Part shown: positions 7,263 to 33,840 of the stretch, in pieces
How the letters are laid out: every line of letters starts with the position of its first letter
Position numbering within the stretch: position 1 is the first letter of the stretch
Source: Acidimicrobiales bacterium
GTDB taxonomy: Bacteria; Actinomycetota; Acidimicrobiia; Acidimicrobiales; VFJN01
Length of the DNA: 64,000 nt
Assembly (NCBI GenBank): GCA_036563805.1
Contig: DATCLS010000058.1
Coordinates: 25,911 to 89,910, forward strand
Direction: 5' to 3'
Made by a program: the position numbers and the translations under genes
Notes under the pieces: model-generated
What the model was told of the DNA's origin: nothing
The model's input: the letters and a program-made list of their open reading frames with translations, nothing else
Databases searched by the model: none

Positions 7263-8226
7263 GGCGGATCCGGGGGTCGACGACCGTGTACAGCACGTCC
7301 ACGGCGAAGTTCACCAGGACGAAGATGATGGCGATGATGGCCACGAAGCTCTGCAGCGCCACGTACTGGCGCTCGGTGATGGCCTGGAAGATGGCGGTGC
7401 CCAGGCCGGGGATGCTGAACAGCACCTCGATGACCAGGGCGTTGCCGATGAGCGTGCCGACGTTCAGGCCGGCCACGGTGAGCAGCGTCAGGCTCGAGGG
7501 GCGCAGGGCGTGGCGCCACAGCACCCGCCGGTCCGAGATGCCCTTGGACCGGGCCATCTGCACGAAGTCCTCCTGCAGCGTCTGCATCATGTCGCTGCGC
7601 AGGAGGCGCATGTAGACGGCGATCTGGGCCGCGGCCAGCGACAAGGCCGGCAGGACCATGCGCTTGACGTGCTCGACCGCGTCCTCGCCGAACGGCACGT
7701 AGCCGGAGGGCGGCACCCAGTTGAGCCAGACGCCGATGTAGTAGGCGAGGGCCAGGCCGAGCACGAAGCTCGGCACCGACAGCAGGGCGAACGCCGTCGT
7801 GTTGGCGCCCTTGTCGAACCACGACCCGGCCCGGTAGGCGGCGACCACGCCGACCGGGATGGCGATCAGCAGCGCCAGGATCTGGGAGTAGACCATCAGC
7901 TGGAGCGACACGGGCAGGGCCTCCTTGACCGTGTCGCCCACGGGGTCCTCACCCGAGACCCGGAAGTAGTCGCCGAAGTCGCCCCGGACGAAGTCGCCGA
8001 GCCAGGCCGTGTACTGGGTCCACAGCGGCTCGTCCAGGTTGAGCCGCTCGCGCACCTCGGCCTTGCGCTGCTGGACCTCCTCCGAGTTCTCGTCCGCCAC
8101 CGGCAGCAGCGTGTCCACCGGGTCGCCCGGCGTCATGCTGAGCAGCAACGAGGTGAACAGCGTGACGAGGAACAGGACGAGGACGAGCAGCAGGAACCGC
8201 TTCCCGAGCTCGCGTGCCAGTACCAC
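7243..8226 (-). CDS. ABC transporter permease (OppB/DppB-like)
   Basis: The hydrophobic protein begins VVLARELGKRFLLLVLVLFLV. The GTG at 8226 overlaps the substrate-binding-protein (SBP) stop by 1 nt. The upstream 47 aa of the track ORF are Arg/Pro-rich and overlap the SBP gene. Confidence 0.85.
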   Translation of the reverse strand: MVLARELGKRFLLLVLVLFLVTLFTSLLLSMTPGDPVDTLLPVADENSEEVQQRKAEVRERLNLDEPLWTQYTAWLGDFVRGDFGDYFRVSGEDPVGDTVKEALPVSLQLMVYSQILALLIAIPVGVVAAYRAGSWFDKGANTTAFALLSVPSFVLGLALAYYIGVWLNWVPPSGYVPFGEDAVEHVKRMVLPALSLAAAQIAVYMRLLRSDMMQTLQEDFVQMARSKGISDRRVLWRHALRPSSLTLLTVAGLNVGTLIGNALVIEVLFSIPGLGTAIFQAITERQYVALQSFVAIIAIIFVLVNFAVDVLYTVVDPRIRHARARS

Positions 8227-9917
8227 TACTGCTCCTTCCAGACGAGGGCCATGTCGTGGCCGAGGGCGAGGCCCTCGTAGTCGGAACCGCCGTCCGGGGG
8301 CCGGGCGCCCACCACGTTGTGGAACTCGGGCTGCATGGGCACCGCCCAGATCGTCCAGGACGCCCACAGCATGTAGTTCTCACGGGCGAGCTCGCGGTTG
8401 AGCTCCTGGTAGATCTCGTTCCGCTGCGCCGGGTCGGCGGTGACGCGACCCCGGTCCAGCAGGTCGTTGACCTCGGGGTCGTTGAACCCCATGAAGTTCA
8501 CGGGGTTGGTCTCGCCGTTGTACCACCAGACGTAGAGGTTGTCGGGGTCCAGCGCCGGATAGTTGCGGAACGTCAGGGCGTCGTAGTTCTTCTCGATGGC
8601 CGTCTGGATGAGCGCCGACTGCTCGAACGTGGTCGTGCTCACGTCCATGCCCACGGCCTCGAACTGCTCGCGGGCCAGCGCCACGAGCGCCACGGTCTCG
8701 GGGTCGGGCGGGCCACCGATCTGGAACGCCAGCCGCTCGCCGGTCTCGCGCTCGTACTGCTCGACCAGCTCGCGGGCCTGCTCGGGGTCGTCGGACTCGT
8801 AGCCGGTCTCCTCGACGTAGCCGATGGACCCCGGCGGGAACGGCCCGTTGGCCAGCGTGGCGATGCCCCGGGACAGGATCTCGTTGCTCAGCTCGCGCTC
8901 GAGCGCCAGCGCCGCCGCCCGGCGGGCGATCGGGTTGTTGAACGGCGGCCGGGTCGCGTTGAGCATCAGGAAGCCGACCTCGGCGTTGGCCTCGGACTCG
9001 GCCAGGTTGACCTGCTCGGCCTCGTCCAGCGCCCGCATCTCGTCGATGGTCAGCGCCCCCGTGTTGCTCGACACGTGGAAGGCGTCGATCTCGCCCGACT
9101 TGAGGGCGTTGACCCGCTGCTGGGCCTCGACCATCGGCCGAAACTCGATCTCGTCGAGGTAGGGGAGCTGGTTCCCGTTCTCGTCGGTCCGCCAGTAGTT
9201 CTCGTTGCGGACGACGGTCAGGTGGTCGTTGACCCGCCACTCCTCGAGCTTGAACGGGCCGGTTCCGATCAGGTTGCGGCCGCAGTTCTCGGCGTCGTCC
9301 AGCTGGGCCTGGCCGGTGATGCCCAGCCGGCCGCTGCTGTAGAGGAACGACGGGAACGCCACCCAGGGCCGCGAGGTCGTGACCGTCACCTCGAGCGGGC
9401 CGGTGACCTCGACGGTCTCGATGTCCTGGAGCACGAACGAGAACAGCAGCGACGACCGGGCGGGGTACTCACCCCGGTAGGCGTCGAGGTTGTTCTTGAC
9501 CACCTCCGCCGTCAGCGGGGACCCGTCGTGGAACACGACGCCCTCCCGCAGCGTGATCGTCCACTGCGTGTAGTCGGCGTTGGGCTCGACCGACTGGGCG
9601 AGGAACGGCCGGAACCCGCCCTCGCCGTCGGGGACGGTCAGCGTGTCGTAGATGGCGCGGGCGACCTGGATGCCCGAGATGGCCAGCTGGGCCTCCTGCA
9701 GGCACCAGCCGCTGGTCGTCTCGGCCTCGAGCCCGTACACCATCCGCCCGCCGTACTGCGGGGGGCCGGCGTCGGCGTCGTCGTCGTCGCCCCCCGACGG
9801 CTGGGTCGAGCCGCTGCTCACGCTCGCGCAGGCGGTGGCCAGGACGGCGAGGGCGATGAGGACGGCCCATCTGCGGGCTCCTCCGCGGCGGCTCGAGCGC
9901 ACGGAAGCGCGTGACAC
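8226..9917 (-). CDS. ABC transporter substrate-binding lipoprotein, family 5 (peptide/nickel)
   Basis: 563 aa with a signal peptide and lipobox (LAVLATAC). SD GGGGGGAG lies 5 nt upstream of the GTG. Confidence 0.9.
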   Translation of the reverse strand: MSRASVRSSRRGGARRWAVLIALAVLATACASVSSGSTQPSGGDDDDADAGPPQYGGRMVYGLEAETTSGWCLQEAQLAISGIQVARAIYDTLTVPDGEGGFRPFLAQSVEPNADYTQWTITLREGVVFHDGSPLTAEVVKNNLDAYRGEYPARSSLLFSFVLQDIETVEVTGPLEVTVTTSRPWVAFPSFLYSSGRLGITGQAQLDDAENCGRNLIGTGPFKLEEWRVNDHLTVVRNENYWRTDENGNQLPYLDEIEFRPMVEAQQRVNALKSGEIDAFHVSSNTGALTIDEMRALDEAEQVNLAESEANAEVGFLMLNATRPPFNNPIARRAAALALERELSNEILSRGIATLANGPFPPGSIGYVEETGYESDDPEQARELVEQYERETGERLAFQIGGPPDPETVALVALAREQFEAVGMDVSTTTFEQSALIQTAIEKNYDALTFRNYPALDPDNLYVWWYNGETNPVNFMGFNDPEVNDLLDRGRVTADPAQRNEIYQELNRELARENYMLWASWTIWAVPMQPEFHNVVGARPPDGGSDYEGLALGHDMALVWKEQ

Positions 9918-27944: not shown

Positions 27945-28397
27945 ATGAGTGACCACCAGCCCGTGGGCCTGTCGACGAGCGGCCCGCCCGAGACCGTCCT
28001 CGACCCCGAGCCCGCCGAGGCGATCGCCGCCCTCGAGGCCGCGGTCGCCAAGACCGACGACGCCGAGCGGCGGGCGGCCGTCGCCGACGTCGTGGCCCGC
28101 TGGCCCCGCTTCCTCGAGGCGTGGGCGGTGCTCGGCGACCTGGGCCGCGACGCCATCGAGCGGTACGCCTACCATCGGGTGGGCTACCACCGGGGCCTCG
28201 ACAAGCTCCGGGCCAGCGGCTGGCGGGGATCGGGCTACGTGCGCTGGCGGCACCCGGAGAACCGGGGCTTCCTGCACGCGCTCGACGGCCTGCGGGCCGA
28301 CGCCGCCGCCATCGGCGAGGAGGACGAGGCCGAGCGGTGCGCCCAGTTCCTGCGGCAGCTCGACCCCGACTGGCCACCGCTCGAGCGCTCGTCCTGA
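27945..28397 (+). CDS. DUF3151 family protein
   Basis: YAYHRVGYHRGLDKLRASGWRGSGYVRWRHPENRGFLHAL matches the conserved actinobacterial DUF3151 pattern. CAGACT, 7 nt, ATG. Confidence 0.8.
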   Translation: MSDHQPVGLSTSGPPETVLDPEPAEAIAALEAAVAKTDDAERRAAVADVVARWPRFLEAWAVLGDLGRDAIERYAYHRVGYHRGLDKLRASGWRGSGYVRWRHPENRGFLHALDGLRADAAAIGEEDEAERCAQFLRQLDPDWPPLERSS

Positions 28398-28427
28398 CCG
28401 CTCATAACGAGCCCGCTGGGCGCGCCC

Positions 28428-28570
28428 GCCACGGCGCCACGCGCCGCGTCACTGACCGCGCCACTCTCGTGCCACTCACCGGCCCGATCGCCCGCCCGTC
28501 GTGCTCGTTTCCAGCGTCACCCGCCGATGTCACCCTGCTGTCACGCCGCCGTGTCACCGCACGGTGTCGG
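28428..28570. repeat. two arrays of helically phased pentamers: G(C/T)CAC x5 (28428-28475) and GTCAC(C/G) x4 plus GTCGG (28516-28569)
   Basis: Copies start at 28428, 28436, 28448, 28460, 28471 and at 28516, 28529, 28540, 28553, 28565. Spacing is mostly 11-13 bp. Confidence 0.6.
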
Positions 28571-28578
28571 CCGCCCAC

Positions 28579-28656
28579 GCCGGCCCATCGCGCCGGCCCA
28601 TCGCGCCGGCTCGTCGCGCCGGCTCGTCGGCCCGGCCGGCCGCGCCGCCGCTCGTT
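28579..28656. repeat. 13-bp tandem repeat, 2 identical + 2 near-identical + 2 degenerate units
   Basis: gccggcccatcgc x2, gccggctcgtcgc, gccggctcgtcgg, cccggccggccgc, gccgccgctcgtt. Confidence 0.7.
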
Positions 28657-28734
28657 TCGGCCGCCCGCCAACCCGTCCGCCCGTCTGACCGCCGACACGG
28701 TCAGGCGAGCCCGGACGGAGGGGCCACGGGTGGG

Positions 28735-29010
28735 TCACCCCGGTCGTGCGGGCCGTCCCGGACATTCCCGGGCGTGCCGCAGGTGCGTGAGCTGCCGGTC
28801 GGCTTCGATGATCAGCCGCTGCACCGTGCGGAGGTCGCCCTGCAGCAGCACCGCGGTGTTCTCGTCACCCATCCGCAGCGACACCGTGCCCGGGTCGGAG
28901 GCCGTGGCCTGGTCTTCCACATCGACGGTCGCCTGGCCGAGGCGGGACAACACGAGGGTGGCCCGCACCGGGCCCTTGTCCTTGAGGGGAAGGACTCTAG
29001 GATCGAGCAC
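28735..29010 (-). CDS. small hypothetical protein (91 aa), predicted four beta strands plus a C-terminal helix
   Basis: The GTG at 29010 is preceded by AAGGAGG with a 7-nt spacer, the strongest SD in the window. Sequence: VLDPRVLPLKDKGPVRATLVLSRLGQATVDVEDQ..TVSLRMGDENTAVLLQGDLRTVQRLIIEADRQL. It is the distal part of track ORF 28735..29178. Confidence 0.5.
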   Translation of the reverse strand: MLDPRVLPLKDKGPVRATLVLSRLGQATVDVEDQATASDPGTVSLRMGDENTAVLLQGDLRTVQRLIIEADRQLTHLRHARECPGRPARPG

Positions 29011-29039
29011 GTCAATGCCTCCTTGGCAGGTGTTGGCCA

Positions 29040-29070
29040 GGCCCCGGGGTGCCGACACACCGCCGGGGCC
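29040..29070. promoter_or_regulatory. GC-rich 12-bp hairpin/palindrome in the small-protein/RHH divergent region
   Basis: GGCCCCGG + GGTG, loop ccgaca, CACC + (g) + CCGGGGCC. It lies 30 nt upstream of the minus-strand SD. Confidence 0.4.
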
Positions 29071-29094
29071 ACTTTCGTTCACGTTACTTCCCAA

Positions 29095-29123
29095 ACACCC
29101 AGCGCGCCCAGTCTTCTGGGTGT
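29095..29123. promoter_or_regulatory. 8-bp inverted repeat ACACCCAG-N13-CTGGGTGT bracketing the CAGTCT hexamer (candidate RHH operator)
   Basis: Read directly from the sequence. Confidence 0.4.
29109..29114 (+). promoter_or_regulatory. -10-like hexamer upstream of mini-ORF 1 / RHH gene
   Basis: CAGTCT, 7 nt, GTG 29122. It sits inside the spacer of the 8-bp inverted repeat 29095-29102 / 29116-29123. Confidence 0.35.
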
Positions 29124-29160
29124 GATCGCCGTTTCCACCCACGGGCGCGGGTTCGCCTAA
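29122..29160 (+). CDS. candidate leaderless mini-ORF (12 codons, VIAVSTHGRGFA) ending 1 nt before the RHH start
   Basis: CAGTCT (29109-29114), 7 nt, GTG 29122. The TAA at 29158-29160 is followed by GTG at 29162. Geometry is identical to bona fide leaderless genes in the window. Confidence 0.25.
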   Translation: MIAVSTHGRGFA

Positions 29161-29161
29161 T

Positions 29162-29326
29162 GTGGTGGGTATCGTCACGCTCTACTACGACATCCCGGAA
29201 GAGTTGCATCGGCGCCTCAAGGTCGAGGCCGCGACGCGCGGCACGACGCTGAAGGCGCTCGTCATCGAGGCGCTCGAGAAGATCCTCGAAGAACCCGCCG
29301 ACAAAGACGCCAACGCCCGTCGCTGA
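29162..29326 (+). CDS. ribbon-helix-helix (CopG/Arc/ParD-like) DNA-binding protein, 54 aa, no adjacent toxin
   Basis: My own translation (below the ORF-track size cut-off): VVGIVTLYYDIPEELHRRLKVEAATRGTTLKALVIEALEKILEEPADKDANARR. This is a classic beta-strand / helix / helix RHH pattern. Confidence 0.65.
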   Translation: MVGIVTLYYDIPEELHRRLKVEAATRGTTLKALVIEALEKILEEPADKDANARR

Positions 29327-29335
29327 CCGACGGGC
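29315..29335 (+). terminator. 8-bp stem hairpin spanning the RHH stop codon
   Basis: gcccgtcg ctgac cgacgggc; no U-tract follows. Confidence 0.3.
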
Positions 29336-29632
29336 CAGACTCGATCACCACCGCCTGCTCCTCTCGTAGGGTCCGCCAACGGCTCGCACCGGAGCCACAG
29401 GGAGCGATCGGCGGTCGCCCGCCAGCGGGGGCGAGCCGCTCGATTCGGCGATCCCGGGGGAGACGACCACCACCCCGGTCCCCCCAGTATTCCACCCCTC
29501 CCACCCCCACACGCGGATACCCCCGAACACATGTCCGCCATGCCCGCCGGCGCTGCGCCCACCGTGCGCCCCGCGCCCGCCGGCCGCCCCGGCGGGTGGC
29601 GCCCCTGCCGCAGCCCGGGTCCGCCGGTCTCG

Positions 29633-29638
29633 TAGCCT
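29633..29638 (+). promoter_or_regulatory. -10-like hexamer upstream of mini-ORF 2 / 3-TM protein gene
   Basis: TAGCCT, 7 nt, GTG GCA 29646. The hexamer and spacing are the same as at 33267 and 36684. Confidence 0.4.
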
Positions 29639-29645
29639 CACGGCC

Positions 29646-29681
29646 GTGGCAACGCCCGGAGGCAACGGTTCGGCGCCATGA
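29646..29681 (+). CDS. candidate leaderless mini-ORF (11 codons, VATPGGNGSAP) overlapping the start of the 3-TM protein gene (ATGA)
   Basis: TAGCCT (29633-29638), 7 nt, GTG GCA at 29646. The TGA at 29679-29681 overlaps the ATG at 29678-29680. Confidence 0.3.
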   Translation: MATPGGNGSAP

Positions 29682-30610
29682 TGTCGGCCCTGTTCACGGC
29701 GGTCGCGGCGAGTGCGGCGGCGACCGATCCGAGCTGGCTCCTGTCGACGATGGCGGAGTCGTCGGCGGCGCTCGTCGGCATCATCGGCGGCCTCCTCGTG
29801 TCGCGGGTGGTGGCGCTGTCGGCAGAGAGGTCGGCGCTCAGCCGGCAGGAGACCGAGTTGGTCCATCGGCGGGCGCAGGTCTCGGCCGAGCTCGACGCCC
29901 GGGCGCAGGCGCTGAAGAAGGACATCGAGGAGGACTTCCGGACGCTGGCGCCCCGCACGGTCTGCAACCGCCCGGACATCACGGTCGACGGCCTGCTGCG
30001 CGAGCACCTCGACGACCGGTGGCACGGCGACGGCGACCTCCGCGCCCTGGCCGAGCGGGTGATCGACACCGTGCGCCGGGCCTACGAGCGCTGCACCGAT
30101 CCCGAGGTCCAGCCGTTCGTCGACCCCGACTCCGTGTGTGAGCTGGTCGAGGTGCCGGCGGGGGAGGAGGAGGTCTACCGGGAGGTCGCCCGCCGGGTGG
30201 CCTACGACCGGCTGGAGGCCAACGGCGCCTTCGACCGGCTGCTCGATCCCCGCTCGCTGCCGGACCTCACCCGGATCACCGAGACGTGGGAGGACATGGC
30301 CGACGCCGACCGCACCCGCCGTAGCGAGGAGCTGGCCGACGAGCTGCGGGACATCGGCATCCAGCTGGTGAGCGTCCGGGGCAGCCTGCACCGCATCGGC
30401 GACGTCCGCAGCCTGCGGCCGACGTTCATCGCCCTCGGGATCTTCGCGGTGGTCGGGATCGTGCAGCCGGTCGTGATGCTGGCCATGCGCCCGGTCCCGG
30501 CCGGCACGGCCCCCCGGGTGTGGATCGTCACCTCGTTCGCGGCGGCGCTCGTCGGCCTGCTGTTCGTCCTCTACCGCGAGATCCGGATGCTGACGAGCAA
30601 CGGGTCCTGA
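29678..30610 (+). CDS. hypothetical membrane protein (N-terminal TM, about 200-aa acidic soluble region, two C-terminal TMs)
   Basis: 310 aa with a coherent high-GC3 frame. TM candidates are AALVGIIGGLLVSRVVAL, FIALGIFAVVGIVQPVVMLAM and VWIVTSFAAALVGLLFVLY. I recognise no family. Confidence 0.65.
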   Translation: MMSALFTAVAASAAATDPSWLLSTMAESSAALVGIIGGLLVSRVVALSAERSALSRQETELVHRRAQVSAELDARAQALKKDIEEDFRTLAPRTVCNRPDITVDGLLREHLDDRWHGDGDLRALAERVIDTVRRAYERCTDPEVQPFVDPDSVCELVEVPAGEEEVYREVARRVAYDRLEANGAFDRLLDPRSLPDLTRITETWEDMADADRTRRSEELADELRDIGIQLVSVRGSLHRIGDVRSLRPTFIALGIFAVVGIVQPVVMLAMRPVPAGTAPRVWIVTSFAAALVGLLFVLYREIRMLTSNGS

Positions 30611-30661
30611 CGAGCATCGGGCAGCGACGGGAGCGGCGTCCGCCGGCGAAGCCCGCCCCCT

Positions 30662-31939
30662 TCACCCCAGCCGCGCCGCCCGGGCCAGCAGGTGCCGCCG
30701 CTCCGGCAGGCTCCGCGCCCGGCGGGCCGCGGCCCGGTAGGCGGCCCGGGCCCCGTCCCGGTCGCCGCCGACCTCCAACAGGTGCCCCCGCACCGAGTCG
30801 AGGTGGTGGGACCGGGCGAGCCGCCGGTCGCCGGCCAGCGCCTCGACCACCGCCAGGCCGGCCGCCGGCCCGTCCACCATGGCGAGCGCCACCGCCTTGT
30901 TGAGCGTCACGACCGGGCTCGGGTCGAGCGTCTCGAGCACCCGGTAGAGGGCGAGGATCTGCGGCCAGTCGGTGTCGGCCGCGGTCGGCGCCTCGTCGTG
31001 GACGGCGGCGATGGCGGCCTGCACCTGGTAGGGGCCGAGCGGCTTCGACCCCAGGGCCCCGGTCACGAGGGCGACGCCCTCGGCGATGGCGTCGGCGTCC
31101 CACCGCGAGCGGTCCTGCTCGCTGAGCGTCACGAGGGCGCCGAGCTCGCCGTCCAGCCGGGCGGGGCGCCGGGCCTCGGTGAGCAGCATCAGCGCCAGCA
31201 GCCCGGCCACTTCGCCGTCGTCGGGCACGAGCCGCAGCAGCAGCCGGGCGAGCCGGATGGCCTCGGCCGTCAGCTCGTCCCGCACCAGGTCGGCGCCGGC
31301 CGTCGCCGTGTAGCCCTCGTTGAACACCAGGTAGAGCACGTGGAGGACGACCCGCAGGCGCGCCCCCTGTTCGTCGGCCGGCGGCAGGCGGAACGTGGCG
31401 CCGGCGGCGCGGATGCGGTCCTTGGCCCGCACGATCCGCTGGGTCATCGTCGCCTCGGGCACGAGGAACGCCCGGGCGATCTCGGCGGTGGTGAGGCCGC
31501 CGACCGCCCGCAGGGTCAGCGCCACCTGGGAGGCGGGGGTGAGCGCGGGGTGGCAGCACAGGAACAGCAGGGTGAGGGTGTCGTCGCCGACCGGGCCGAG
31601 GGCGTCGGGGCCGCCGGGCTCGGACCCGGACTCCTCGGCCGGCCGGCGGGGCGCGCGGGCCTGGTCCAGCTCCTCCCGCCGCCGGCGGGCCTCGTCCCGC
31701 CGCAGCTCGTCGGCCAGCCGCCGCGCCGCCACCGTGGTCAACCAGGCCTTGGGGCTGCCGGGCCACCCGTCGCCCGGCCACTGGCGGGCGGCGGCCAGCA
31801 GCGCCTCCTGCACGGCGTCCTCGCACGCGTCGAAGTGGCCGTAGCGCCGGACGAGCGCGCCGAGCACCTCCGGCGCCAGCCGCCGCACCTGCGTCCAATC
31901 GGGATCGGTCACGGCTTCGCGGTCACGGCCCGCCGCCAT
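30662..31939 (-). CDS. ECF sigma factor with a long TPR-like C-terminal extension (ECF42-type)
   Basis: 425 aa; sigma2 (FDACEDAVQEALLAAARQW), sigma4 (LTLRAVGGLTTAEIARAFLVPEATMTQRIVRAK), then an extension of about 230 aa. Confidence 0.9.
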   Translation of the reverse strand: MAAGRDREAVTDPDWTQVRRLAPEVLGALVRRYGHFDACEDAVQEALLAAARQWPGDGWPGSPKAWLTTVAARRLADELRRDEARRRREELDQARAPRRPAEESGSEPGGPDALGPVGDDTLTLLFLCCHPALTPASQVALTLRAVGGLTTAEIARAFLVPEATMTQRIVRAKDRIRAAGATFRLPPADEQGARLRVVLHVLYLVFNEGYTATAGADLVRDELTAEAIRLARLLLRLVPDDGEVAGLLALMLLTEARRPARLDGELGALVTLSEQDRSRWDADAIAEGVALVTGALGSKPLGPYQVQAAIAAVHDEAPTAADTDWPQILALYRVLETLDPSPVVTLNKAVALAMVDGPAAGLAVVEALAGDRRLARSHHLDSVRGHLLEVGGDRDGARAAYRAAARRARSLPERRHLLARAARLG

Positions 31940-31966
31940 GGCCGGGCGCCGGGACGATCACCGCCG

Positions 31967-32323
31967 TCACAGCTGGGTCTCGGCCTCGTGCACCAGCGCC
32001 CGGACCTCGACCCCGGTGTAGCGCGACGCCGGGTTCAGGGCGGCGATCTCCAGCGCCCGCTCCTCGCTGTCGCAGTCGACGATCGTGAAGCTGCCCAGGA
32101 ACTCCTTGGCCTCGGCGTAGGGGCCGTCGGTGACCGCCGGCGGGCCGTCGGCCGCCCGCACGACCTTGGCGTCGTCGGCCACGCCGTAGGCGCCGACGAG
32201 CTCGCCCGACTCGAGCAGCGCCCGGTTCAGGGCGTCGGTCTCCCGGATCACGGCAGCCAGCTCGTCGGCGCCGAGCGACTCCCACCGCTCCTGGTCGCCG
32301 TAGATCAGCAGCATGTACTTCAC
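31967..32323 (-). CDS. YCII-related (DGPF) domain protein
   Basis: VKYMLLIYGDQERWESL... SD GGAGAGGAG upstream of the GTG. The stop is 27 nt upstream of the sigma gene start. Confidence 0.85.
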   Translation of the reverse strand: MKYMLLIYGDQERWESLGADELAAVIRETDALNRALLESGELVGAYGVADDAKVVRAADGPPAVTDGPYAEAKEFLGSFTIVDCDSEERALEIAALNPASRYTGVEVRALVHEAETQL

Positions 32324-32379
32324 GGTCTCGCTCCTCTCCGAGCGTCTCTGCGGGCGTCTCCCCGAGCCTCCACGAGCCC

Positions 32380-33138
32380 CTACGGGGCGGCTGCGCCTCG
32401 GGCCTCGCGCTCGGCCACGGCCGCGAAGCGGTCGTCGTCCAGCTGGAGCCTGGCACGCCCGGCCACCGTGTACCGGACGTGGAGGACGTCGGGCGTCTCC
32501 ACGACCCGGGTCGGGGTGAGCTCGATGCCCTCGTCCGGCCCGAGGCCGAGGCCGGCGTCGAGCAGCCGCAGCCCGTCCCCGAGGATCACCGGGGCGACGT
32601 GCAGCTCCAGCTCGTCGAGCAGGCCCGCCCGCAGGACCTGGCGCACCACGGTCCCCCCGCCGGCGACGGCGACGTCCTTGCCGGCGGCGCCGGCCGCCTC
32701 CCGGGCCAGCGCGACGGCCCGCTCGACGCCGTCGGTCACGAACGTGAACGACGTGCCGCCGTCCTTCACCAGCGTCTGGCGGGGCCGGTGGGTGACCACG
32801 AACACCGGTGCCCGGAACGGCGGGGTGTCGCCCCACGGGCCCTCACCGCCGTCGAACATGCGCCGGCCCATCACGTAGGCGCCGGCGGCGGCGAACGTCT
32901 CCTCGATGATCGAGCTGTTGGCCGACCGCTCGCCCCCGCCCAGGCCCAGGCGCTCCCGCCAGGCCATGGCGTCCACCGCCCAGCGGGTGATGCGGAAGAA
33001 CCCGAGCGCCTCGGGGCTGTCGGCCCAGCCCGCCCCGCCCTCCGGGCCCGCCGCGTCCCGGGGGTGCCGCGGCCCGGCGTAGAACCCGTCCAGCGACACC
33101 GACATCTGCGCCGTCACCTTCGTCATCTCTCCGGTCAC
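32380..33138 (-). CDS. dihydrofolate reductase family protein (RibD C-terminal domain)
   Basis: MSVSLDGFYAGP.., VFVVTHRP.., LLDELELHVAPVILGDG. SD AGGAGG, 6 nt, GTG. Confidence 0.85.
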   Translation of the reverse strand: MTGEMTKVTAQMSVSLDGFYAGPRHPRDAAGPEGGAGWADSPEALGFFRITRWAVDAMAWRERLGLGGGERSANSSIIEETFAAAGAYVMGRRMFDGGEGPWGDTPPFRAPVFVVTHRPRQTLVKDGGTSFTFVTDGVERAVALAREAAGAAGKDVAVAGGGTVVRQVLRAGLLDELELHVAPVILGDGLRLLDAGLGLGPDEGIELTPTRVVETPDVLHVRYTVAGRARLQLDDDRFAAVAEREARGAAAP

Positions 33139-33266
33139 CTCCGACCTCCTGTCGTCCGGTCACCGCGGCCCGACCGGCCGCGTCACCCCTCAGTCGGAGC
33201 CGACCGCCCGATCCCGACACGCGCCCTGGGAACCTCGCGGTGCGCCGGCCCGGCGGGCGGGTCCCG

Positions 33267-33272
33267 TAGCCT
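33267..33272 (+). promoter_or_regulatory. -10-like hexamer (flavin reductase)
   Basis: TAGCCT, 7 nt, ATG GCA 33280. Confidence 0.55.
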
Positions 33273-33279
33273 CACGCGC

Positions 33280-33840
33280 ATGGCAGCACCCGGAGGCACC
33301 GGACCGATCGGACCGTTCCCGCTCGGCGTCGACACGCCCGAGCAGCAGGAGGAGTACGACAAGCTGCGACGGCGGGTCCTCTGGACGATGCCCTCTGGCC
33401 TGTACGTCGTCGGCAGCCGGCACGACGGGACGCTGAACTTCATGACCCTCAACTGGGCGACGCAGGTCAGCTTCGAGCCCAAGCTCCTCGGCATCGGCGT
33501 CGAGAAGACGGCCGTCACCCACCGGCTCATCGCCGAGGGCGGCTGCTTCACCCTGAACACGATCGCCCGCGAGGACCGGACGATCGTCCGCAAGTTCACC
33601 AAGCCCGCCGAGCACGACCCCGGGGCCCGCACGCTCAACGGCTTCCCGTACCACGAAGGCCGGACCGGCGCCCCGATCCTCGACCAGGCCGTGGCCTGGC
33701 TCGACTGCGAGGTGCGCCAACCCGTCGACTGCGGCGGCCACACGTTCTTCATCGGCGAGGTGGTCGACGCCGGCTTCCAGCGGGACGAGAACACCGAGGT
33801 CCTCCGCATGGAGGACACCCGCATGAGCTACGGCGGTTGA
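33280..33840 (+). CDS. flavin reductase family protein
   Basis: SGLYVVGSRHDGTLNFMTLNWATQVSFEPKLLGIGV. TAGCCT, 7 nt, ATG GCA. Confidence 0.85.
   Translation: MAAPGGTGPIGPFPLGVDTPEQQEEYDKLRRRVLWTMPSGLYVVGSRHDGTLNFMTLNWATQVSFEPKLLGIGVEKTAVTHRLIAEGGCFTLNTIAREDRTIVRKFTKPAEHDPGARTLNGFPYHEGRTGAPILDQAVAWLDCEVRQPVDCGGHTFFIGEVVDAGFQRDENTEVLRMEDTRMSYGG

Follow-up and report, generated by a model that had tools for sequence, protein, structure and literature searches.

A conserved ribbon-helix-helix gene pair and a candidate structured RNA beside an insertion hot spot in uncultured Acidimicrobiales

The segment at 28.4-30.6 kb of the DNA analysed here (64 kb in all, hereafter the window, from an uncultured Acidimicrobiales bacterium) had been set apart in a preliminary description as a single unusual islet. 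Our own leaning, held with moderate confidence, is that the region consists of two unrelated things, namely an inherited cassette built around a minimal ribbon-helix-helix (RHH) protein (approximately 28735-29541) and an insertion hot spot adjacent to it. The cassette, in which the RHH gene stands divergently to a gene for a 91-residue protein and is followed by a conserved RNA-like element, is present in all 11 contigs compared, which belong to one uncultured Acidimicrobiales lineage. The evidence consists of this conservation pattern, the synteny, the architecture of the repeats, structure-preserving substitutions in the RNA-like element and a direct repeat around the neighbouring insertion. 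All six features listed in the preliminary description (a repeat-bearing convergent spacer, the 91-residue protein, a divergent control region, the RHH protein, a C-rich spacer and a 310-residue membrane protein) exist where they were placed, but they do not form one module. Coordinates are collected in Table 1.

The relatives all came from exact-protein look-ups, and the comparison set, made up of the DNA around eight homologues of the 91-residue protein, comprised 11 contigs from nine distinct lineages (related contigs are given below by their L numbers). Scanning the GTDB genome and JGI metagenome collections with the alignment of the 91-residue protein, and with the invariant hairpin of its leader as a DNA pattern, gave no match. 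The two genes are divergent in all 11 contigs, lie 133-151 bp apart, and the RHH orthologues (72-81% identical by MAFFT column identity) adjoin the gene for the small protein in every locus. DUF3151, patatin, hydrolase and pyruvate kinase genes are found on the same side of the pair wherever the related contigs extend far enough, and the DUF3151 gene named earlier as left neighbour was borne out by Pfam. Compared with the window, the small protein was 71-75% identical and the RHH protein 76-83%, and for pyruvate kinase and DUF3151 the values were 77-80% and 78-86% (the latter against the homologues in L002 and L006). The pair thus diverges as its housekeeping neighbours do, which argues for vertically inherited core DNA rather than a mobile unit.

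The RHH fold, previously named from the sequence, is suggested by five Pfam profiles (FitA-like_RHH, ParD, Antitox_RHH, HicB and RHH_10) that agree with one another, with E values from 1e-5 to 1e-3, each 1-7 bits below its gathering score, as well as by Arc-like repressor matches in PHROGs and a CopG-family PDB chain at E 0.009. Read directly, the sequence contains VTLYYDI (strand), PEELHRRLKVEAATRG (helix 1), a G-T-T turn and LKALVIEALEKIL (helix 2), all residues that are invariant in the orthologues, and so displays the strand-helix-helix pattern of about 45 residues with a G-x-T/S turn. After helix 2 the chain runs on for only about 10 residues, which are poorly conserved, and lacks a C-terminal extension. 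The protein probably starts at the second GTG (29165), giving 53 residues as in the relatives, and the GTG at 29162 would give 54. It had been described as a 54-residue orphan without a toxin or ParA partner; no such partner was found, but the protein does have a conserved partner in the divergently encoded 91-residue protein, and its length is probably 53. In three related contigs (L015 1181-1387, L019 413-757 and L020 502-846) the gene callers annotated an open reading frame (ORF) antisense to the RHH gene in its stead, although the RHH gene is intact in all three, and the family is therefore under-reported in public annotations.

For the 91-residue protein, 19 homologues of 81-90 residues were found with 63-79% identity, all beginning with MLDPRVLP as part of an invariant N-terminus, MLDPRVLPxxDKGP. 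An AlphaFold2 model with a predicted local distance difference test (pLDDT) score of 74 comprises a disordered N-terminal peptide, four beta strands and a C-terminal helix of 23 residues. The protein matched nothing in Pfam, NCBIfam, PADLOC, PHROGs, PDB sequences, PDB folds or BFVD viral folds, and tblastn against plasmids and phages returned chance matches only. It represents a new, narrowly distributed family. The gene was said earlier to have the strongest Shine-Dalgarno sequence in the window; the minus-strand gene and an AAGGAGG at 29018-29024, 7 nt before its GTG, are indeed there, but the heptamer occurs four times in the window, so that the ribosome-binding site is strong and not unique.

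The control region between the two genes contains the elements described before, a GC hairpin and an inverted repeat around a -10-like box, with the hairpin stem measuring 13 bp. This hairpin (29040-29070) lies within a 43-nt block of the leader of the 91-residue protein gene, and is the main element in every single-sequence fold as well as in the consensus fold. Across 10 distinct sequences the block is invariant except for two nucleotides in the hairpin loop and one beside the stem. Upstream of it lie two inverted repeats (IR-1 and IR-2, Table 1) whose ACCCA(G/C) half-sites are nearly invariant across the relatives, and ACCCA[CG] sites are concentrated here; 165 bp hold four of them, where the mean over the window is 0.19, which places the stretch in the top 0.16% of windows. 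The other invariant blocks are the 43-nt hairpin block itself, AGGAGG and the first five codons of the small gene. Among eight non-redundant sequences, pairwise diversity was 0.164 in the intergenic DNA compared with 0.28 (RHH) and 0.43 (small gene) at third codon positions, and third-position diversity was 0.097 in the first 11 codons of the RHH gene compared with 0.33 in the rest of it. These values indicate that the control region is under strong constraint. A long-range helix seen in the window leader (GGGUGUU with AACACC) was rejected as it is not conserved in the relatives.

The layout is that expected of an autorepressor of the Arc/Mnt/CopG kind binding as a dimer of dimers. The phage P22 Arc protein (53 residues) and CopG of plasmid pMV158 (45 residues) are both ribbon-helix-helix repressors, and the protein found here is likewise minimal, consisting of the beta-alpha-alpha core only. 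Its gene is situated at a compact control region with short inverted repeats over promoter elements and over its own start, and its matches include Arc-like repressors and a CopG-family PDB chain. In contrast to those repressors, the locus lies in the chromosome, is inherited vertically and has no phage or plasmid surroundings, the Pfam scores are below gathering, the partner is of an unnamed family, the RHH gene carries a conserved structured 3' region, and the binding is predicted by analogy. In the mechanism that we propose, an RHH dimer of dimers would bind the two ACCCA(G/C) inverted repeats over the presumed core promoters and its own start codon, and would thereby repress both its own gene and that of the 91-residue protein. 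The messenger of the latter would have a leader of about 100 nt with the invariant GC hairpin and a very strong ribosome-binding site, so that the protein would be made in quantity once de-repressed. The general kind, an RHH repressor with a divergent target, is a known one; the novel parts are the small-protein family and the candidate structured RNA.

The strict coupling of two small genes in every locus would also fit a non-canonical divergent toxin-antitoxin or effector-immunity pair, in which the 91-residue protein is toxic and the RHH protein neutralises it transcriptionally or directly. The best RHH profiles in Pfam and NCBIfam are indeed those of antitoxin families (FitA, ParD, RelB-like, HicB), the very strong ribosome-binding site and tight control region would suit a protein that needs to stay off, and the small protein could interact through its invariant, disordered N-terminal peptide. 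A further likeness to type II systems with RHH antitoxins (FitAB, ParDE, RelBE, CcdAB, AtaRT) is the tight linkage of a small RHH gene to another small gene, and true toxin-antitoxin cargo (MNT/HepT) occurs at the neighbouring hot spot in L002. However, toxin and antitoxin genes are expected to be adjacent, co-directional and co-transcribed, and those found here are divergent in 11 of 11 loci, with a different gene downstream of the RHH gene in each lineage. The roughly 10 residues beyond the DNA-binding core leave the RHH protein without a toxin-binding extension, and its partner has no match among toxin families or folds. Toxin-antitoxin modules are typically patchy and mobile, whereas this pair has been passed on vertically at a single site in the chromosome, and the stronger ribosome-binding site is on the putative toxin, the reverse of the usual stoichiometry. 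We therefore regard a toxin-antitoxin or effector-immunity pair as quite unlikely and retain the autorepressor with a divergent target as the preferred reading of the two genes.

Downstream of the RHH gene lies a spacer of 351 bp (320 bp in the preliminary description, which called it an untranslated C-tract). It is C-rich (46% C) but not featureless, since it holds a conserved structured element. The first ~215 nt past the RHH stop codon align in all nine distinct lineages, whatever gene comes next (a convergent one in L006 and L015). The element comprises an invariant GCUCCUCUCG, a GCUC/GAGC hairpin, a long variable hairpin, a CCGG/CCGG hairpin and a hairpin GCGGAUA[CCCCCGAACACA]UGUCCGC (loop in brackets), and on the RHH-sense strand the conserved motifs are CACCGUCGCC-AGCUCCUCUCG, GCUC-N6-GAGC-GAUAGG, GCGAUCCCGG, CCCCGG and GCGCGGAUACCCCCGAACACAUGUCCG. 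A covariance model, R1, was built from the nine sequences and the structure statistics were computed on the model-based alignment. R1 found exactly one copy per locus, the window copy scoring 142 bits with no second copy in the window. Paired cells amounted to 82.6%, compared with 35-45% when the partners were slid by 1-3 columns, and 12 pairs were changed on both sides compared with 2-8 in the slid controls; none of 500 shuffles reached the observed values. In the long hairpin 9 of 15 pairs covary, and this hairpin forms in all nine sequences, each time with a different sequence. Insertions and deletions in the element are not multiples of three. Conservation, compensatory pairs and the lack of a conserved ORF are the general marks of a structured RNA, here observed in nine related sequences with an alignment fitted to the model. 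No Rfam family reached its gathering score anywhere in the window, none had E <= 5 in 29327-29677 or in the leader, and none had E <= 1 in five related loci; viral contigs scanned for the element gave no match.

There is no conserved promoter ahead of the element, and the simplest reading is thus that it forms the 3' part of the RHH transcript and is co-transcribed with the gene. The RHH transcript would then most likely continue into a structured 3' region of about 200 nt, which could stabilise the transcript, be processed to a small RNA or bind a protein. This resembles regulatory RNAs derived from or embedded in 3' untranslated regions and small RNAs with C-rich loops, such as the actinobacterial 6C RNA, in that the element comes straight after a small ORF, too close to it for a separate conserved promoter, and displays invariant pyrimidine-rich single-stranded motifs, GCUCCUCUCG and the loop CCCCCGAACACA. 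It differs from these RNAs in matching no Rfam family, 6C included, and in that it could pair with the ribosome-binding site of the 91-residue protein gene over a complementary stretch of only about 5 bp. A role for the CU-rich motif as an anti-Shine-Dalgarno seed on that messenger was considered and rejected on the same complementarity and for lack of covariation. Following the element at 29576-29596 is a perfect 7-bp GC hairpin (CCGCCGG-N5-CCGGCGG) with no U-tract, and other GC hairpins occur at the same place in the relatives; these may be U-less terminators of the RHH transcript.

The second part of the region begins about 125 nt past the element (~29669), where a variable segment starts that differs in every related lineage. 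In the window this segment is bracketed by an imperfect direct repeat of 60 nt, with copies at 29609-29668 and 33243-33302 that share 77% identity. In the right copy a -10-like TAGCCT is followed, after 7 nt, by the start of an intact flavin-reductase gene, from its ATG through the first eight codons (MAAPGGTG). In the left copy TAGCCT is kept and the start is GTG, the relic reading VATPGGNG. In the window the best non-self blastn match of the left copy is the right one; among the other loci it is the start of the flavin-reductase gene in L002, and the corresponding starts in L013 and L006 can be aligned with the left copy as well. The relic is part of the 11-codon mini-ORF (29646-29681; VATPGGNGSAP and a TGA stop) which the preliminary description had recognised as overlapping the ATG of the 310-residue protein gene, and the overlap (ATGA stop-start) is real; it had counted two starts coupled in this way, one of which was located and the other could not be identified. 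Judged from the sequence, the mini-ORF is the remnant of a duplication that took in the promoter and first eight codons of the flavin-reductase gene.

Between the repeat copies lie about 3.6 kb (bounds ~29669-33242) with the genes for the 310-residue protein, an extracytoplasmic function (ECF) sigma factor of the ECF42 type, a YCII protein and a RibD_C protein. In L013 the flavin-reductase gene follows 62 nt after the RNA-like element in an uninterrupted arrangement, the empty site. With the four genes enclosed by repeats in the window and the site uninterrupted in L013, an insertion into the 5' end of the flavin-reductase gene is indicated that duplicated its promoter and start. Flanking direct repeats together with presence/absence polymorphism among relatives are as expected of a genomic island. 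In other lineages the position is taken by MNT/HepT (L002), an alcohol dehydrogenase block (L006), an amidase (L015), a GNAT gene (L003 and L004) or unknown ORFs (L014, L016 and L019). The position is an insertion hot spot. A search of the region for tRNA and tmRNA genes found none.

In four lineages (the window at 33263-33282, L013, L002 and L006; alignment A10) a TAG(C/G)(C/G)T box stands exactly 7 nt before the flavin-reductase ATG, and there is no Shine-Dalgarno sequence at the flavin-reductase starts of these four; together, the position of the box and this lack suggest a leaderless messenger. The same box geometry recurs in the relic copy at 29631-29648, ahead of GTG. In L002, at 7400-7490 on the RHH-sense strand, the MNT gene starts at a GTG after CGTAGGCT and 7 nt, like the flavin-reductase promoter and start, and this independent insertion may likewise have duplicated the target promoter.

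Since at least eight lineages have different cargo after the 200-nt block, the block might instead act as DNA and set the position of the hot spot, for example as an attB-like landing pad or a protein-binding region. The weak strand preference of the predicted structure would fit such a role, as would the several conserved blocks that are invariant and hence uninformative on pairing. It is hard to see, however, why a DNA site would change on both sides of 9 of the 15 pairs of the long hairpin with the pairing kept and the sequence different in each lineage. The direct repeat of the insertion, moreover, lies 68 nt past the block, in the promoter and 5' end of the flavin-reductase gene and hence outside it, and there is no integrase nearby. 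We consider a DNA site unlikely. The arrangement in L013, where the flavin-reductase gene follows the element on the same strand, could also mean that the element is, or was, a riboswitch-like cis-regulatory leader of the flavin-reductase operon and not part of the RHH transcript, and a co-directional gene does follow the element in six of nine lineages. However, the element is kept where the next gene is convergent (L006, L015) and where kilobases separate it from the flavin reductase, it matches no Rfam riboswitch, and the flavin-reductase gene has its own -10-like box in four lineages whatever lies upstream, suggesting an independent leaderless transcript. A leader of this kind is in our judgement distinctly unlikely, and the element is discussed below as the putative 3' region of the RHH transcript.

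According to the mechanism proposed for the hot spot, about 3.6 kb would have been inserted at the 5' end of the apparently leaderless flavin-reductase gene, duplicating the promoter and eight codons, and the relic would now supply a promoter and a translationally coupled start to the 310-residue protein gene; the order of these events is a reconstruction. Integrative elements that carry a replacement gene end, such as e14 and phage 21 in E. coli icd and the islands linked to tRNA and tmRNA genes, offer a known parallel. As in those, the cargo lies between direct repeats that duplicate an end of the target and leave it intact, and the site holds different cargo in each lineage. The differences are that the 5' end (promoter and eight codons) and not the 3' end is duplicated, that the repeat is only 77% identical, that neither the segment nor its surroundings encode an integrase, recombinase or transposase, and that the cargo consists of ordinary regulatory and metabolic genes.

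Several observations count against this combined reading of cassette and hot spot. In the control region, the stems of the leader hairpin never vary and are equally compatible with action as RNA or as DNA, and a scan for sigma-70 consensus promoters found no canonical one, a null result to be expected in a high-GC actinobacterium. The promoter positions are putative, and the -10-like box of the 91-residue protein gene is degenerate in the window, which has a 9-nt insertion there. Binding of the RHH protein to the repeats would follow solely from the analogy with Arc/CopG-type repressors. For the RNA-like element, diversity (0.356) is no lower than at third codon positions, the strand preference is slight, with 82.6% paired on the RHH-sense strand and 78.7% on the other (G-U pairs), and the alignment that was tested had been fitted to the structure and held only nine related sequences, which inflates the shuffle statistics. 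The CU-rich 5' segment has alternative pairings; a CUCC/GGAG pairing proposed by RNAalifold conflicts with the CCGG/CCGG hairpin, which does covary, so that the architecture given for the 5' third of the element is provisional. At the hot spot, no integrase, recombinase or transposase is encoded among the genes of 29669-33242 or the flanks, as the preliminary description had also noted for the neighbourhood, and the two copies of the direct repeat share only 77% identity, where the GC-rich background itself yields many weak matches.

The cargo gene closest to the cassette encodes the 310-residue protein, described before as a three-transmembrane protein of no nameable family. The three membrane-like helices and the lack of a named family hold, and to these can be added a coiled coil and a large number of relatives. 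A word-index search had returned only the protein itself, suggesting an orphan, but an exhaustive HMMER search overturned this by recovering 491 cluster representatives at E <= 1e-3, mostly full-length and of about 300 residues. Conserved in the family are an N-terminal DPNWLLSTxAQSxAALVAIVGGFLVSR helix and a C-terminal hydrophobic helix pair around RPVP. No Pfam or PADLOC family was matched, and the model had no PDB fold match. This model (pLDDT 81) is all-helical, with three membrane-like helices and a long antiparallel coiled coil; the first membrane helix runs into a helix of 80 residues that is paired with another long helix, with a small helical head between the two. The protein is thus predicted to be a membrane-anchored coiled-coil member of a widespread unnamed family. 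Relatives of this protein adjoin a serine recombinase, a transposase and a resolvase (the last on the mobilisable Pseudarthrobacter plasmid pMK-1), the gene is absent from 10 of 10 related contigs, and it looks like accessory cargo. In L009 (3624-5984) and L010 (3584-5959) a distant relative of 354 residues is convergent with the gene for an ECF sigma factor, there paired with a zf-HC2 anti-sigma factor, mirroring the convergence of the 310-residue protein and ECF42 genes in the window, which may be chance.

The assignment of the sigma factor to ECF42 was sound: Sigma70_r2, Sigma70_r4_2 and DUF6596 are all above threshold, and a YCII gene is adjacent. A YCII-domain gene is a described neighbour in ECF42 modules (PMC8999054). 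The window module resembles these in its sigma regions 2 and 4, its long C-terminal extension (DUF6596, TPR-like repeats) and its YCII neighbour, and no difference was found, so that it can be considered an ordinary ECF42 member, but one carried as inserted cargo. It had been taken for a flank of the islet. The ECF42 block instead lies inside the insertion, between the repeat copies, and the 91-residue and RHH genes lie outside.

On the other side of the cassette, the 337-bp convergent spacer with GTCAC/GCCAC pentamers and a 13-bp tandem repeat was recovered as described. Tandem Repeats Finder (TRF) reports a 13-bp array at 28578-28647 (5.4 copies, score 84), a GTCAC array with a 13-nt period spans 28516-28558, and the spacer holds 11 GTCAC/GCCAC pentamers, the maximum for 337-bp windows over the 64 kb, which average 1.5 (top 0.05%). 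Tandem repeats are frequent in this 76% GC window, with 45 TRF rows per 64 kb. The equivalent spacers of the relatives measure 13, 17, 57, 158, 180, 324 or 352 bp, the GTCAC and 13-bp arrays recur in no relative, and none of these spacers has alignable similarity to that of the window. Some relatives have repeats of their own, a single 14-bp tandem with two GTGAC in L013 and unrelated short repeats in L002, where the 324-bp convergent spacer (8250-8573) holds several copies of GCCGTGCGGC and CGTGCGGTCGGCCGT, unrelated to those of the window. Such convergent spacers seem to gather lineage-specific repeats independently, and that of the window is best read as unconstrained, lineage-specific DNA moulded by local tandem duplication. 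A terminator-like hairpin at 28679-28710, just 3' of the 91-residue protein gene, may terminate its transcript.

Other identities for the spacer were rejected. A protein-coding or decayed gene does not fit its translations, which are Arg/Gly/Ala-rich, of low complexity and unlike the relatives and a 100-residue ORF of L019. That ORF (L019 1131-1433, L021 435-737, one lineage) is helical, belongs to no Pfam family and sits where the window has the repeat-rich spacer, with no similarity between them; its 4-nt overlap with the stop of the small-protein gene suggests translational coupling. Iterons, a centromere or CRISPR were likewise discarded for the arrays, which are not conserved and have a 13-bp period off the helical repeat, the CRISPR-DR20 match scoring 18.6 bits compared with a cut-off of 42. 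The pentamer GTCAC of the array also occurs at codons 4-6 of the RHH gene (29172-29176, ATCGTCACG), where synonymous sites are invariant, and at the 5' end of the RNA-like element in most relatives (GTCACCGTC, alignment A7 columns 3-9). This recurrence could be a coincidence or a common binding motif.

It remains to weigh the preliminary description itself, according to which 28.4-30.6 kb is one mobile or accessory islet of a partition, toxin-antitoxin or abortive-infection kind. The stretch is unusual, and the segment from ~29669 does vary between lineages, but the unit proposed and its boundaries were wrong. An RHH fold is typical of antitoxins and of centromere binders of the ParG/omega type, the hypervariable position just downstream holds MNT/HepT in L002 and a GNAT gene in L003 and L004, and relatives of the 310-residue protein occur near recombinases and a transposase and on a plasmid, all of which could be taken as signs of such an islet. 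However, the three proteins, which had been expected to co-occur, are never together outside this genome, the 310-residue protein gene accompanying the pair in none of the 10 related contigs. Nor does the islet hold together in synteny; the pair is syntenic everywhere and diverges like core genes, and the repeat-rich spacer is unconserved. The two genes are divergent and not operonic, and the true insertion has other bounds (~29669-33242). PADLOC, Pfam, NCBIfam and PHROGs gave no toxin, ParA/ParF or abortive-infection signature, PADLOC in particular returning nothing for the 91-residue and RHH proteins and only a spurious Csm3 match (E 0.05) for the 310-residue protein, and the RHH protein has no partner-binding tail. 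No gene for a Walker-type partition ATPase was found in the window segment or the related loci, and centromere-like repeats are not conserved here, with arrays confined to the window and spacers of 13-352 bp in the relatives. A single islet is in our view highly improbable, and an inherited cassette beside a separate hot spot remains the preferred reading.

Beyond the genes already discussed, the left flank of the cassette contains an ordered set of conserved genes (Table 1), from which an XRE-type helix-turn-helix gene, located between DUF3151 and patatin in L006 (6491-6859), L007 (1380-1754) and L015 (2349-2636), is absent.

Table 1. Positions and supporting observations for the features of the cassette, the hot spot and their flanks, in window coordinates
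Feature	Position	Strand	Observation
Window contig			ENA ERZ4232226, NCBI locus tags VIL48_14040 to 14050; uncultured Acidimicrobiales bacterium, GC ~76%
Genes left of DUF3151			In order: pyruvate kinase, alpha/beta hydrolase, patatin-like protein
DUF3151 gene, conserved left flank	27945-28397	+	Pfam PF11349, E 6.7e-34
Convergent spacer, lineage-specific	28398-28734		337 bp
91-residue protein gene	28735-29010	-	Start backed by 19 homologues
5' leader of 91-residue protein gene	29018-29072	-	AAGGAGG and 43-nt block 29030-29072
IR-1, candidate RHH operator	29095-29123		ACACCCAG-N13-CTGGGTGT; inner CCCAG at 29107-29111
IR-2, candidate RHH operator	29137-29170		ACCCAC-N22-GTGGGT; brackets TAATGT (29158-29163), overlaps RHH start codon
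RHH gene	29165-29326	+	Alternative GTG 29162
Conserved RNA-like element, ~200 nt	29343-29541	+	Directly 3' of RHH gene
Left repeat copy and mini-ORF	29609-29681	+	Repeat search, blastn, alignment to relatives
310-residue protein gene	29678-30610	+	
ECF42-type sigma factor gene with DUF6596	30662-31939	-	Pfam
YCII gene	31967-32323	-	Pfam
RibD_C gene	32380-33138	-	Pfam
Right repeat copy	33243-33302	+	Intact flavin-reductase start, conserved right flank
Flavin-reductase gene, intact	33280-33840	+	ATG at 33280, MAAPGGTG...; followed by MarR and further genes

A bolder proposal would join the parts more closely. The small protein, the minimal RHH protein and the 200-nt RNA might form an undescribed three-component switch, in which the RNA, arising as the 3' portion of the RHH transcript, acts on the RHH protein, the small protein or the messenger of the latter through the invariant CU- and C-rich motifs, and the cassette with the duplicated leaderless promoter might serve as a landing pad that captures and expresses foreign genes; this we offer as speculation with little expectation that it holds in full. 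Should the element be confirmed, it would represent a new class of structured RNA tied to a minimal transcription factor, and the 91-residue protein and the RNA candidate would add a new family and a new class from a poorly studied uncultured lineage of actinobacteria. The locus also provides an example of gene capture in which the acquired gene appears to gain its expression signals by duplication of the promoter and first codons of a leaderless target, at a spot where independent insertions have occurred in several lineages. More generally, a few relatives suffice to split the oddities of a single genome (repeats, a mini-ORF, a low-complexity spacer) into those that are conserved and probably functional and those that are lineage-specific filler.

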